Positions 8,115 to 43,923 of a stretch of DNA of 64,000 nt are shown here, in pieces (the first letter of the stretch is position 1; each line of letters begins with the position of its first letter). The notes beneath the pieces are model-generated. The model ran no database searches and was not told where the DNA came from. It saw nothing but the letters and a program-made list of their open reading frames with translations. A program made the position numbers and the translations under genes. Origin of the DNA: Escherichia coli (GTDB taxonomy: Bacteria > Pseudomonadota > Gammaproteobacteria > Enterobacterales > Enterobacteriaceae); NCBI RefSeq assembly GCF_048403405.1, contig NZ_CP183129.1. The stretch is one strand, 5' to 3'.

Positions 8115-8186
8115 AATATTATGTTAACGGCATGTATATCATTTGGGGTTGCGATGACGACGAACACGCATTTTAGAGGTGAAGAA

Positions 8187-9871
8187 TTGAAGAAGGTTTG
8201 GCTTAACCGTTATCCCGCGGACGTTCCGACGGAGATCAACCCTGACCGTTATCAATCTCTGGTAGATATGTTTGAGCAGTCGGTCGCGCGCTATGCCGAT
8301 CAACCCGCGTTTGTGAATATGGGGGAGGTGATGACCTTCCGCAAACTGGAAGAACGCAGTCGCGCGTTTGCCGCTTATTTGCAACAAGGGTTGGGACTGA
8401 AGAAAGGCGATCGCGTTGCGTTGATGATGCCTAATTTATTGCAATATCCGGTGGCGCTGTTTGGCATTTTGCGTGCCGGGATGATCGTTGTAAACGTTAA
8501 CCCGTTGTATACCCCGCGTGAGCTTGAGCATCAGCTTAACGATAGCGGCGCATCGGCGATTGTTATCGTGTCTAACTTTGCCCACACTCTGGAAAAAGTG
8601 GTTGATAAAACCGCCGTTCAGCACGTAATTCTGACCCGTATGGGCGATCAGCTATCTACGGCAAAAGGCACGGTAGTCAATTTCGTTGTTAAATACATCA
8701 AGCGTCTGGTGCCGAAATACCATCTGCCAGATGCCATTTCATTTCGTAGCGCCCTGCACAACGGCTACCGGATGCAGTACGTCAAACCCGAACTGGTGCC
8801 GGAAGATTTAGCTTTCCTGCAATACACCGGCGGTACCACTGGTGTGGCGAAAGGCGCGATGCTGACTCACCGCAATATGCTGGCGAACCTGGAACAGGTT
8901 AACGCGACCTATGGTCCGCTGTTGCATCCGGGCAAAGAGCTGGTGGTGACGGCGCTGCCGCTGTATCACATTTTTGCCCTGACCATTAACTGCCTGCTGT
9001 TTATCGAACTGGGGGGCAGAACCTGCTTATCACTAATCCGCGCGATATTCCTGGGTTGGTAAAAGAGTTAGCGAAATATCCGTTTACCGCTATCACTGGC
9101 GTTAACACCTTGTTCAATGCGTTGCTGAACAATAAAGAGTTCCAGCAGCTGGATTTCTCCAGTCTGCATCTTTCCGCAGGCGGAGGGATGCCTGTTCAGC
9201 AAGTGGTGGCAGAACGTTGGGTGAAACTGACTGGACAGTATCTGCTGGAAGGTTATGGCCTGACCGAGTGTGCGCCGCTGGTCAGCGTTAACCCGTATGA
9301 TATTGATTATCATAGCGGTAGCATCGGTTTGCCGGTGCCATCGACGGAAGCCAAACTGGTGGATGACGACGACAACGAAGTACCACCGGGTCAACCGGGT
9401 GAGCTTTGTGTCAAAGGGCCGCAGGTGATGCTGGGTTACTGGCAGCGTCCGGATGCTACCGATGAAATCATCAAAAATGGCTGGTTACACACCGGCGACA
9501 TCGCGGTGATGGATGAAGAAGGATTCCTGCGTATTGTCGATCGCAAAAAAGACATGATTCTGGTTTCCGGTTTTAACGTCTATCCCAACGAGATTGAAGA
9601 TGTCGTCATGCAGCATCCTGGCGTACAGGAAGTCGCGGCTGTTGGCGTACCTTCCGGCTCCAGTGGTGAAGCGGTGAAAATCTTCGTAGTGAAAAAAGAT
9701 CCATCGCTTACCGAAGAGTCACTGGTGACTTTTTGCCGCCGTCAGCTCACGGGCTACAAAGTACCGAAGTTGGTGGAGTTTCGTGATGAGTTACCGAAAT
9801 CTAACGTCGGAAAAATTTTGCGACGAGAATTACGTGACGAAGCGCGCGGCAAAGTGGACAATAAAGCCTGA
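8187..9871 (+). pseudogene. fadD: long-chain fatty acid-CoA ligase, interrupted by a -1 frameshift in this sequence
   Basis: TTG at 8187 reads [14 protein letters not shown]…FIELGG then hits a stop at 9060; the next frame continues [23 protein letters not shown]… to 9871; one base missing after the G6 run at 9011-9017; the two parts total 561 codons. Confidence 0.85.
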
Positions 9872-24079: not shown

Positions 24080-24583
24080 TTACGCAGTGCGGCGGAAATT
24101 GACCAGTTCTGGTTGCGCAATGCGCAAATAATCCGCGGTTTTCAAAATAACGGATTTATCCAGCATGCCTGCATTGAAGGCGATTTCATCAAATCGTTCG
24201 AAGAGTAGGGGATCGGCAACCAGTTTGAGTTTTGGATGGAAGCTGAAAGGGGGGATCGCGCCGAAGACACAGCCTGTGAGTTCATCGACTTCCGCCGGGC
24301 TGGCCAACGAAGCGCGTAATCCGCCTATATGGCTGGCGAGTTGGCTCAGATCGGCCTGTTGATCGGCAGCGAGGATCGCCAGAACATGTTGATTTACACC
24401 ATTGCCTTTGACTTTACATACCAGTGCCTTAGCCCCCTGGCCTAAAGCGGTGCCACGAATTTCTGACACCGCTTCACATTTACCTACCGCTTCATGGGTA
24501 ACGACGCGGAAGTCAGCACCTTCTTGTGATAATAAAGCGATTAACCGCTGATGCGTCATGCTTCCTTTAGCCATTTCAGTCAT
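24080..24583 (-). CDS. yeaK: YbaK/ProX-family aminoacyl-tRNA deacylase
   Basis: 167-aa ORF MTEMAKGSMTHQRLIALLSQEGADFRVVTHEAVGKCEAV…. Confidence 0.88.
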   Translation of the reverse strand: MTEMAKGSMTHQRLIALLSQEGADFRVVTHEAVGKCEAVSEIRGTALGQGAKALVCKVKGNGVNQHVLAILAADQQADLSQLASHIGGLRASLASPAEVDELTGCVFGAIPPFSFHPKLKLVADPLLFERFDEIAFNAGMLDKSVILKTADYLRIAQPELVNFRRTA

Positions 24584-24625: not shown

Positions 24626-25976
24626 TCATGAACGGCTGTTTTTGTTCTGCTTATTGACATATAAACGCTCATCGGAAGCTTTATACGCATCATGTAACGT
24701 ATCGTTTTCTTTCATCGCGTAAATACCGGAAGAGAAGCCGATCTCTTTCTGCGGCGCGATATGTTGCAGACGTTTTTCGATACGTTCAGGCAGTTGTGCT
24801 GCAATTTGCGGCGTCGAATCGACTAGAATGATGCAGAATTCATCGCCACCGAGTCGGATGGCATAATCACTTTTACGAATCGACTGTTTAATCGCCTGAG
24901 CTAATAACGTAATCGCTAAATCCCCCTCCTGATGACCGAGGGTGTCATTTATTTGCTTTAACTTGTCCATGTCAATTGCAATAAACATCACCGAAGAACC
25001 GGATTGCACCAGTTTTTGCAACCGCTGCTCCAGTTCAGGGGTTAAAATTTTGCGATTATACAGTCCTGTCATCGCATCACTAATATTTTCTCGCGACACA
25101 TTTTGGTATAAACGGAAGTGCATCCGCACCATATTCAGCAAAATTAACGCCGTCAAAATCCAGAACAGAACGCTTTTCCACGAAGACGTGATAAAGTAAA
25201 GAATATCAATGGATAACGAGACACGAATGCCGCCCGGTAAGTCATGGACGTAACTGACATACTGGAACAGATTATCTTCGCTCTGGTTGATGATAATGTC
25301 GCGCCCCGAATCGGTATCGGTTAGCGTGACATTGAGAAAACGCCAGAGGAGAGGGCGGTCATGAGTGTAAAAGATATTCCGCAGATTGTTTTTGTTAATA
25401 TCCAGCAGCACAATCCCTTTTAGCTGCCCTGCGACATATACCGGCGTCAGCAAACTCATCACGTTCTGTTTAGTACGCTGATCCTGGTAAATGCTCGATA
25501 AAACGGTACGCCCGGTAAATACCTTTTCAATATCTTTGCGATCGATGCCAATACTTCCTGACTGCAGGAAAGACCAGTTATTCATCGCAAAGTACTCAAC
25601 ATTAACCGGCTCATAAAAATAGACATAGCGGTCATTGAGATCGAGATAATAGTGAAATTTCTCGTCGGCCATCCCAAGACCTGAACCGTAATCATCCTGG
25701 TGGCGGTTGCCTTCCACTGCCTGATCAAAAGCGGGTAATAGTGCTGCAGCTTCCACAATTGTGTCGCAGTCAGTGGATGCGGTTTGTAGTGTGCCGCGTA
25801 AGCCAGGGTATTTATGGGCAGTCAGGTTTAAGCCATGGGTATTATTTGCAGACTCAAAAGCCTCGCAGATGGTGCGCCGCTGTTCTGGCGACAAGTTCAA
25901 AAATAAGGAAGGAAGATGTCAGCACAATGACACTTGCGGCGATAAAATGCCGGAGCATTCTATGGTGCAATTTCAT
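24626..25976 (-). pseudogene. dgcJ: diguanylate cyclase DgcJ, N-terminal segment out of frame with the body
   Basis: ATG at 25976 encodes the TM N-terminus MKLHHRMLRHFIAASVIVLTSSFLIFELV…, which stops at 25854; the 424-aa body (…RxxD I-site RKSD, GGDEF RLGGDEFCIIL) is in the +1 frame from 25900. Confidence 0.75.
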
Positions 25977-26156
25977 GATAAATGGCACTCCTTCGGTTAG
26001 TGAAACGAGAAAACCAGATAAAGTTCGATTGCGGCCTGGCACAGGGGCGCTAATTATACTCATCTCTGCGCCGCTGGGGAGGGGAAATTTAGGGGTAATA
26101 GTAATAAATTGTATGCAAAAGCCACGCAAAAAGCATGGCTCTGAATATTTTTGCAC

Positions 26157-27632
26157 TTAAATATGATGAATAATCACTTTGTTGCCCCCCTCGCTTTTCG
26201 CTTCGCGTAAGGCTTTATCTGCTTCCGTCATGACAAGCGAGATATTACGTGTGTCACCCGTTGAAAAAACCGTGCCAATACTGATGGTCATTTGCTCAGG
26301 AACATCATATCTGTTACTAAAGCCGGTCAGGAGTTCGACATTTTTACGCATACGTTCCGCAATGATTTTTGCCTGGGCACTATTGAGTTCGGTAAATAGC
26401 AAGCCAAACACCTCACCCTCCAGTCGCGCTAAAATATCATCGGGGCGGATGCTTTGCTGGATAATATCGACAATTGAAACCAGCACTTTATCACCCACAC
26501 GATGTCCCCATTGGGCATTGATGCGTTTGAACTGATTAATATCAACCAGCATGACACAGAAGTCCTTAACAACAGGTCGCGACAATAATGACTCTACGCT
26601 GTTGAAAAAGTAGCGCCGATTATAAATATTGGTCAGCACATCATGAACTGCCAGTTTGCTGGAGAGTTGCAGTTCCTGAAAAATGTTATAAATCAGAAAA
26701 GACACAACAAACAGTTTACTGGAGACTTCAATCCCGCGACTGATATACCAGATGGTGTAATTATACTCATCCAGAGTTAGTAGAAGTAAGTTGCAGCATA
26801 GCGATGCCAGACATAATAATGCTATTAACGGCCATAGTTCGCTGGCTAATCGTGTACGCATGATAATAAAGAACAGTAAAAATGCCCACAGACAAACCAA
26901 TGTTTTTGTATAGTTGATTCCCCAGGTCGCAGTATGGTTGTCCGGACAGTAATCGACGACATACAAAGAATAGTCAGCGTTATAACTGCTCAGATTGTGT
27001 GCCAGAAGGGGAAAAACTAAAAAAGGAATCAGCGCCAGTAACAGAATGCCAGTTTTTTTCTTATTGTTGTCAAGGATGTTGTCTTTCCCATAACAAAAGA
27101 GCGCCAGCGAGGTTAAACAAATGAAACTGAGTTGGCGGAAAATATAGAAAATAGAAACATCATTCGACTTTGTCTGGATCAGTGTACTGCCGTTGATTGG
27201 TTTATGGATAATTACAATGGTTTCAACTAAATAGATAAGGCCACTTAAAAATGCAAGGCTTAAAATGAGTGTTGGTAAAATTTGTTTGTTAGTGAAATAC
27301 TTCATTAACATGAAAAGAAAAATGACGGCGTTAAGGAAAAACAAAGCCACAACAACCATCAGGTAATTCATCTGTGGGATGAGTTTTACATTCGTGTTTT
27401 CGTTATATAAGGTAGTAATGCAAAATAAAATTAACGTCAGCAATAAGCTGAAAATAAAAAAGCCTTGAGCTTTTAATTTTTGTGTACCCATAGAAGCCAT
27501 AAAAAGGAGAGCAATGTGAGTGCTGGATTTTATTGATGGCAGAGATATATAGTTTTGACCAGGATCAATTTTCGTTAACGATAAAAAATATTTAAAGAAT
27601 AACCCCAGGGAAACACGTGTTGACCGAATCAT
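26157..27632 (-). CDS. cdgI: degenerate GGDEF-domain membrane protein (c-di-GMP binding)
   Basis: 491-aa ORF (yeaI); multiple N-terminal TM helices; GGDEF replaced by EGEVF with RxxD (RPDD) retained; strongly AT-rich coding sequence. Confidence 0.88.
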   Translation of the reverse strand: MIRSTRVSLGLFFKYFLSLTKIDPGQNYISLPSIKSSTHIALLFMASMGTQKLKAQGFFIFSLLLTLILFCITTLYNENTNVKLIPQMNYLMVVVALFFLNAVIFLFMLMKYFTNKQILPTLILSLAFLSGLIYLVETIVIIHKPINGSTLIQTKSNDVSIFYIFRQLSFICLTSLALFCYGKDNILDNNKKKTGILLLALIPFLVFPLLAHNLSSYNADYSLYVVDYCPDNHTATWGINYTKTLVCLWAFLLFFIIMRTRLASELWPLIALLCLASLCCNLLLLTLDEYNYTIWYISRGIEVSSKLFVVSFLIYNIFQELQLSSKLAVHDVLTNIYNRRYFFNSVESLLSRPVVKDFCVMLVDINQFKRINAQWGHRVGDKVLVSIVDIIQQSIRPDDILARLEGEVFGLLFTELNSAQAKIIAERMRKNVELLTGFSNRYDVPEQMTISIGTVFSTGDTRNISLVMTEADKALREAKSEGGNKVIIHHI

Positions 27633-43165: not shown

Positions 43166-43923
43166 GTGGCGGCAAAAGACAGGATTCAGGCAATTAAGCA
43201 AATGGTTGCCAACGATAAAAAGGTGACAGTCTCAAATTTGAGTGGGATTTTTCAGGTAACCGAAGAAACCATTCGCCGCGATCTCGAGAAGCTGGAAGAT
43301 GAAGGCTTTTTGACCAGAACCTATGGTGGTGCTGTTTTAAATACAGCGATGTTGACGGAGAATATCCATTTTTATAAGCGCGCTTCATCGTTTTATGAAG
43401 AGAAGCAGCTTATTGCACGCAAGGCACTACCCTTTATCGACAATAAAACCACTATGGCAGCCGATTCCAGTAGTACCGTTATGGAATTGCTCAAATTGTT
43501 GCAGGACCGTAGTGACCTGACGTTGCTAACTAACTCGGCGGAAGCGATTCATGTTCTGGCTCAATCAGAAATTAAAGTCGTTTCAACGGGGGGGAACTAA
43601 ACAAAAATACACTTTCCCTGCAAGGAAGAATTACTAAAGAGATCATCAGCCGCTACCATGTCGATATCATGGTAATGAGTTGTAAAGGTCTTGATATTAA
43701 CAGCGGCGCGCTGGACTCTAACGAAGCGGAAGCTGAAATCAAAAAGACAATGATCCGTCAGGCGACAGAGGTTGCGTTATTGGTTGATCACTCTAAGTTT
43801 GATCGCAAAGCTTTTGTCCAGTTAGCTGACTTTAGTCATATTAATTACATAATAACTGATAAATCACCGGGTGCAGAGTGGATAGCATTTTGCAAAGACA
43901 ATAATATCCAGCTGGTGTGGTAA
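43166..43923 (+). pseudogene. ydjF: DeoR-family transcriptional regulator, interrupted by a frameshift in this sequence
   Basis: GTG at 43166 encodes the HTH N-terminus and stops after …VVSTGGN at 43600; the next frame continues ELNKNTLSLQGRITKEIISRYHVDIMVMSCKG… to 43923; break lies in the G7 run 43588-43594; the two parts total 252 codons. Confidence 0.85.

Follow-up and report, generated by a model that had tools for sequence, protein, structure and literature searches.

A recent 140-bp deletion between short direct repeats has probably inactivated the c-di-GMP synthase gene dgcJ in a single strain of Escherichia coli

The 64,000-nucleotide stretch of Escherichia coli DNA analysed here (the window) carries a copy of dgcJ (yeaJ) that, with a probability of roughly 80%, is a recent strain-private pseudogene whose function was lost through a 140-bp deletion between two 9-bp repeats (Table 1). 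By sequence and by synteny the locus is the dgcJ ortholog, yet no single frame of it encodes a full-length member. It is flanked by cdgI (yeaI, 26157..27632) and yeaK (24080..24583), as in all annotated relatives, and a 1.75-kb query around it matched 5,415 of 5,426 complete E. coli genomes, the annotation beneath the match being always cdgI, dgcJ and yeaK. The RefSeq DgcJ protein (WP_001322965.1, annotated so in strain Ecol_545) has the N-terminus MKLHH and is composed of 496 aa, with Pfam domains GAPES1 at residues 31-304 and GGDEF at residues 346-494; its gene has a length of 1,491 bp versus 1,351 bp for the locus in the window. The intact protein matches the NCBIfam equivalog model of DgcJ (NF040885) with 746.6 bits over profile positions 1-492. 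Two separate pieces of the locus match the same model: a long open reading frame, the body (640.5 bits against a cut-off of 500, profile positions 73-492 only), and a 40-aa N-terminal peptide in a different frame from the body (profile positions 1-29). Because both pieces match the DgcJ equivalog model, a chance pattern of open reading frames is ruled out.

Alignment with the intact dgcJ of Ecol_545 contains a single gap of exactly 140 bp, the 240 aligned bases being otherwise identical. The missing stretch corresponds to nt 84-223 of the intact gene (or to an equivalent placement inside the repeat) and encodes residues 31-75, with which the periplasmic GAPES1/dCache sensor opens immediately after the first transmembrane segment (TM1). 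A first-pass annotation of the window had proposed an internal, frame-breaking deletion after TM1, and the alignment bears this out: the locus and intact dgcJ are not colinear, and 140 bp are missing. The size that it gave, roughly 130 bp, was an underestimate, and its recoverable length of about 452 aa agrees with the 451 native residues counted (30 upstream and 421 downstream of the gap). Its coordinates for the ATG (25976), the stop (25854) and the body, which opens at TTG 25900 in the other frame, are all correct.

The number of bases lost leaves a remainder of 2 on division by 3, and the dgcJ frame therefore shifts. Translation from the native ATG (25976-25974), which sits 11 nt downstream of AAGGAG (25993-25988), gives MKLHHRMLRHFIAASVIVLTSSFLIFELVA, then the out-of-frame residues RTAAHHLRGF and the stop codon TGA (25856-25854), so that the whole peptide up to the stop reads MKLHHRMLRHFIAASVIVLTSSFLIFELVARTAAHHLRGF. 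Upstream of the gene there are zero differences from strain MS 69-1 (window positions 25977-26156), and the sequence that spans the junction is TTGAACTTGTCGCCAGAACAGC. Residues S76-S496 are encoded by 25891..24629, within the long open reading frame 24626..25900 (424 codons from TTG 25900); this TTG is 76 nt downstream of the ATG, a distance that leaves a remainder of 1 on division by 3, hence the different frame. Programmed frameshifting was rejected as an explanation of the split, since 45 sensor residues would be missing even with the frame restored.

Table 1. Features of the dgcJ locus and amino acid substitutions in the window relative to MS 69-1 (positions are those of the whole 64,000-nucleotide stretch)
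Feature	Position	Strand	Remarks
dgcJ (yeaJ), probable pseudogene, whole	24626..25976	-	synteny cdgI-dgcJ-yeaK; 99.9-100% identity to intact dgcJ outside the 140-bp gap
Shine-Dalgarno sequence AAGGAG of dgcJ, native and unchanged	25988..25993	-	sequence
Truncated N-terminal frame, 40 codons	25854..25976	-	30 native residues M1-A30 including TM1, plus 10 out-of-frame
Deletion junction, sole surviving copy of the 9-bp repeat TGTCGCCAG	25885..25893	-	alignment with the intact gene
Orphaned body, native S76-S496 and stop codon	24626..25891	-	other frame; open upstream to TTG 25900
TM2	25174..25127	-	intact within the orphaned body
I-site RKSD	24877..24866	-	intact within the orphaned body
GGDEF motif, residues 423-427	24850..24836	-	intact within the orphaned body
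DgcJ E151D (GAA to GAC; intact numbering), second private change in dgcJ	25664	-	in none of 5,404 matching complete genomes
YeaV V107G	14590		versus MS 69-1
DgcP H327R	19463		versus MS 69-1
MsrB Q18K	35642		versus MS 69-1
YdjH D210E	41721		versus MS 69-1
YnjH V50I	54816		versus MS 69-1; on 34 contigs of the protein collection
YdjZ V207I	61378		versus MS 69-1

The deletion evidently arose between two copies of a short repeat. Intact dgcJ contains two copies of the 9-bp direct repeat TGTCGCCAG 140 bp apart, one at nt 84 (codon phase 2) and the other at nt 224 (codon phase 1); of the direct repeats in the gene whose copies are spaced by 300 bp or less, this pair belongs to the three longest. The deletion ends in a perfect direct repeat of which a single copy is kept, and the length lost equals the repeat spacing, as is expected of short-homology deletions. 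When every distinct outcome of a 140-bp deletion was enumerated along a 65-kb stretch of the closest relative (49,115 in total), a single one had microhomology of at least 9 bp at its junction (1/49,115, or 2e-5), namely the dgcJ deletion itself; a random or arbitrary deletion was rejected on this figure. Because the 9-bp microhomology is unique among these outcomes, it points to slipped-strand misalignment. Misalignment of this kind, or an equivalent short-homology, RecA-independent deletion between the two repeats, would remove exactly 140 bp, and established knowledge of such events makes a mechanism of this class likely. The classic E. coli lacI deletion spectra include slipped-strand, RecA-independent deletions between short direct repeats. 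The dgcJ deletion resembles the lacI type in that it ends exactly within a short perfect repeat, leaves one copy and has a length equal to the period; compared with that type it is in no way unusual, and the mechanism is a textbook one. A hairpin that brings the repeats together was not supported: folding of the DNA between the repeats gave z = -1.32, and 17 of 200 shuffled sequences folded equally well.

The stretch that is missing from the window is otherwise nearly universal in the species. About 5,400 of the 5,426 complete E. coli genomes (~99%) have both of its flanks, and among the matches listed every one splits in two and is 140 bp longer than the query. A probe of 45 nt that has the junction at its centre, and is unable to seed a megablast match on intact dgcJ, had no match in the 5,426 complete genomes, and a 30-nt junction probe had none in JGI metagenome contigs, in GTDB species-representative genomes or in 13 fetched loci. 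The 40-aa peptide and five candidate products with the junction or E151D in them were absent from a collection of ~15 billion proteins. Exact look-up of six possible remnant products found only the 319-aa C-terminal product (from ATG 25585) on record, and this product is uninformative about the junction allele because it lies downstream of both private changes in dgcJ. Judged by these distributions, the 140-bp stretch is evidently ancestral and the deletion allele private. Both copies of the repeat are kept in 15 of the 16 dgcJ loci that were fetched from diverse lineages; thus the substrate for the deletion is present species-wide, though the deletion itself is rare.

Comparison with close relatives indicates that the event is recent. 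Strains MS 69-1 (USA), TUM1226 (Japan) and isolate 68 (Spain) are mutually identical over window positions 1501-50499 (49 kb), and all three have an intact dgcJ. Over the full 64 kb, the window differs from MS 69-1 by seven substitutions, two single-base contractions of G-runs and the dgcJ deletion, and by nothing else. The sites of difference from the window are shared by the three relatives, so that the changes lie on the window's own branch; because these nearest relatives are otherwise almost identical, the dgcJ deletion is private and recent. All seven substitutions are nonsynonymous, DgcJ E151D included, which is expected from random mutation about once in ten times and is suggestive only. 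In the protein collection, the private variants of YeaV, DgcP, MsrB, YdjH and YdjZ are all confined to one and the same NCBI contig, and the window accordingly belongs to a single deposited assembly of chromosome scale that lies outside the set of genomes compared. In another close relative, Ecol_545, a further c-di-GMP gene in this region, the neighbouring cyclase gene dgcP (L017:17918-18942), is annotated as a frameshifted pseudogene, through either strain-specific decay or error.

The two G-run contractions disrupt fadD and ydjF. The run in fadD (9005-9011, plus strand) is G6, one base shorter than in MS 69-1; 5,400 of 5,401 matching complete E. coli genomes have the run at normal length and one of 5,401 has the shorter run. 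As a result of the frameshift fadD, which encodes a long-chain-fatty-acid-CoA ligase, is split into two open reading frames (8121..9062 and 9056..9871). The run in ydjF (43582-43588, plus strand) is G7, one base shorter than in 174 of 175 matching genomes, the shorter run being found in one of 175; the DeoR-family regulator YdjF is truncated to 144 aa versus 252 (open reading frame 43166..43600). Each contraction is either a sequencing error in a homopolymer or a genuine slippage mutation; both look like the former, which casts doubt on the quality of the assembly. With three broken genes in roughly 60, a general process is indicated, whether an assembly left unpolished, a mutator or a lineage that passed through a bottleneck; likewise, the private branch is unusually long and protein-altering throughout, which suggests one of the same three causes. 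That this assembly bears an unusual load of private protein-altering changes is perhaps of more practical use than the dgcJ allele.

The contractions also raise the question of whether dgcJ might be intact in the strain itself, the gap having been introduced by library preparation, by cloning or during consensus building. Two nearly unique one-base contractions of G-runs on the same private branch, of a kind that is typical of homopolymer errors in pyrosequencing, semiconductor or nanopore data, would be consistent with such an artefact, as would the fact that the junction allele is known from a single assembly. A clean loss of 140 bp exactly between 9-bp repeats is, however, unlike an error of the homopolymer type. 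Nine bases are far below the k-mer or overlap length of any assembler, so that collapse of the repeat is not to be expected; most reads would have to carry the gap for it to enter the consensus; and a microhomology found once in 49,115 outcomes points to a templated event in DNA. An artefact of sequencing or assembly is accordingly improbable, and a real deletion in the chromosome of this strain is preferred.

If the deletion is real, ribosomes that initiate at the native ATG would stop after 40 codons and release a short TM1 peptide, and the remaining 421 codons would be left with no evident initiation signal. The GAPES1 domain of the remnant covers model positions 45-274 only, positions 1-44 being missing, and no complete GAPES1 is joined in frame to TM1, which lies in another frame and is followed by a stop. 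The GGDEF domain, in contrast to GAPES1, is complete (Pfam, E = 4.4e-40, model positions 3-160 of 161). Initiation or re-initiation within the body might thus still yield an N-terminally truncated GGDEF protein that makes c-di-GMP uncoupled from the periplasmic signal: the GGDEF motif, the I-site and TM2 are all preserved in a frame that stays open over 424 codons. There is a precedent in Shigella, where dgcE, dgcQ and dgcN have a premature stop before an intact GGDEF domain, yet over-expression from a plasmid raised c-di-GMP (PMC11327459), but this precedent rests on a high-expression plasmid. In the window, a search for Shine-Dalgarno-like or purine-rich sequence before the in-frame starts of the first 130 body codons (TTG 25900, TTG 25894, GTG 25756, GTG 25717, ATG 25672 and ATG 25585) found none, and the closest in-frame start beyond the premature stop is 98 nt downstream of it. 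A remnant product, if made, would lack the signal-anchor TM1, and its sensor could not reach the periplasm. Moreover, single substitutions in the ligand pocket of the DgcJ sensor (Y210F, D212N, D239N) already give protection from phage N4 equal to that of a deletion (PMC8669472). An active remnant is therefore very improbable. The first-pass annotation had also allowed for a reference protein that starts naturally at the internal site, and none was found: RefSeq DgcJ extends over its 496 aa from MKLHH, and a natural internal start was rejected on that ground and for want of an in-frame start with a ribosome-binding site.

The preferred reading, in which the deletion abolishes DgcJ, has consequences that can be predicted from work on K-12. 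Infection by phage N4 specifically requires dgcJ out of the 12 cyclases that are active in K-12, and the catalytic activity of DgcJ is needed (PMC8669469); DgcJ directly binds NfrB (PMC8669469, PMC8669472). Protection from N4 is conferred by deletion of dgcJ, by dgcJ::IS1, by a catalytic mutant and by substitutions in the periplasmic ligand pocket (PMC8669469, PMC8669472). The phenotype also needs nfrA, nfrB and wecB, which are outside the window, and DgcQ serves as a minor backup (PMC8669469). Because the first 45 residues of the sensor and its linkage to TM1 are lost, and pocket substitutions are already null-like, the allele is expected to be null for the NfrB/N4 pathway. Loss of DgcJ would leave no local supply of c-di-GMP to activate the NfrB glycosyltransferase, and would thereby protect the strain from N4 and similar phages; it would also take away the share of DgcJ in the c-di-GMP pool that restrains motility. 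The sequence thus argues strongly for a strain without functional DgcJ, which is predicted to be resistant to N4-type phages and to lack one input of motility control.

Disruption of dgcJ is not confined to this strain. On 221 contigs the 319-aa C-terminal product is predicted as a gene of its own. In ten such loci that were inspected (L004-L013) every lesion differs from the 140-bp deletion: there are three nonsense codons (157, 168 and 169), three deletions of one base (nt 450, 475 and 502), a gain of 2 bp at nt 449 and a copy of IS1 (L007 and L012) that is flanked by a 9-bp target duplication (nt 493-501). In L004 and L008 yeaK is split as well, and a sequencing error may thus lie behind some of the small indels; for the nonsense codons and the IS1 insertion this is unlikely. 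Recurrent breakage of dgcJ fits either weak purifying selection or recurrent selection against the gene, for example by N4-like phages.

Two of the known alleles are close parallels. The dgcJ::IS1 allele of MG1655 stock CGSC 7740, which explains the N4 resistance of that stock (Sellner et al. 2021, PMC8669472), is likewise a strain-specific disruption of the part that encodes the periplasmic sensor, with the GGDEF-coding part intact downstream; the IS1 insertion in L007 and L012 is of the same type. It differs in that IS1 lies at codon ~165-167 and the loss of function was proven experimentally, whereas here 140 bp are deleted at codons 31-75 and the loss is deduced from the sequence. The dgcJ allele of Shigella flexneri 2457T (S1553), a truncating deletion, is similar in that a gene for a c-di-GMP synthase has decayed in a particular lineage, as others have there through a deletion or a premature stop (Ojha et al. 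2024, PMC11327459); that allele lacks GGDEF and gave no c-di-GMP, whereas GGDEF is retained here, as in Shigella dgcE, dgcQ and dgcN, which showed some activity when over-expressed (PMC11327459).

A further suggestion is that the deletion was positively selected, either for resistance to N4-like phages, with the DgcJ-NfrB glycan switched off in a clinical lineage of E. coli, or for its effect in favour of motility. At least eight different independent lesions of dgcJ are found in other assemblies, and loss of dgcJ protects strongly from N4 and gives higher fitness under N4 challenge, the latter according to PMC7553319 as it is cited in PMC8669469 and PMC8669472. On the other hand, the unrelated genes fadD and ydjF are also frameshifted within 64 kb and 7/7 substitutions are nonsynonymous, which suggests a general excess of private lesions (through a mutator, a bottleneck or errors) and not selection aimed at dgcJ, and the deleted region is kept in ~99% of complete genomes. 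Positive selection for this deletion is therefore unlikely, and the allele is best regarded as an ordinary strain-private pseudogene, new as an allele but of a gene for which null alleles were already known.

For annotation, the locus is better called a dgcJ pseudogene (internal deletion, frameshift) than two genes. Owing to the early stop, about 1.2 kb of mRNA would go untranslated ahead of yeaK, which lies on the minus strand, 42 nt downstream of the dgcJ stop. If dgcJ and yeaK are co-transcribed, Rho-dependent polarity could lower the expression of yeaK. Since DgcJ is the specific local source of c-di-GMP for NfrB, which builds the receptor glycan of phage N4, the predicted resistance to N4 could matter if this lineage were considered for phage therapy.
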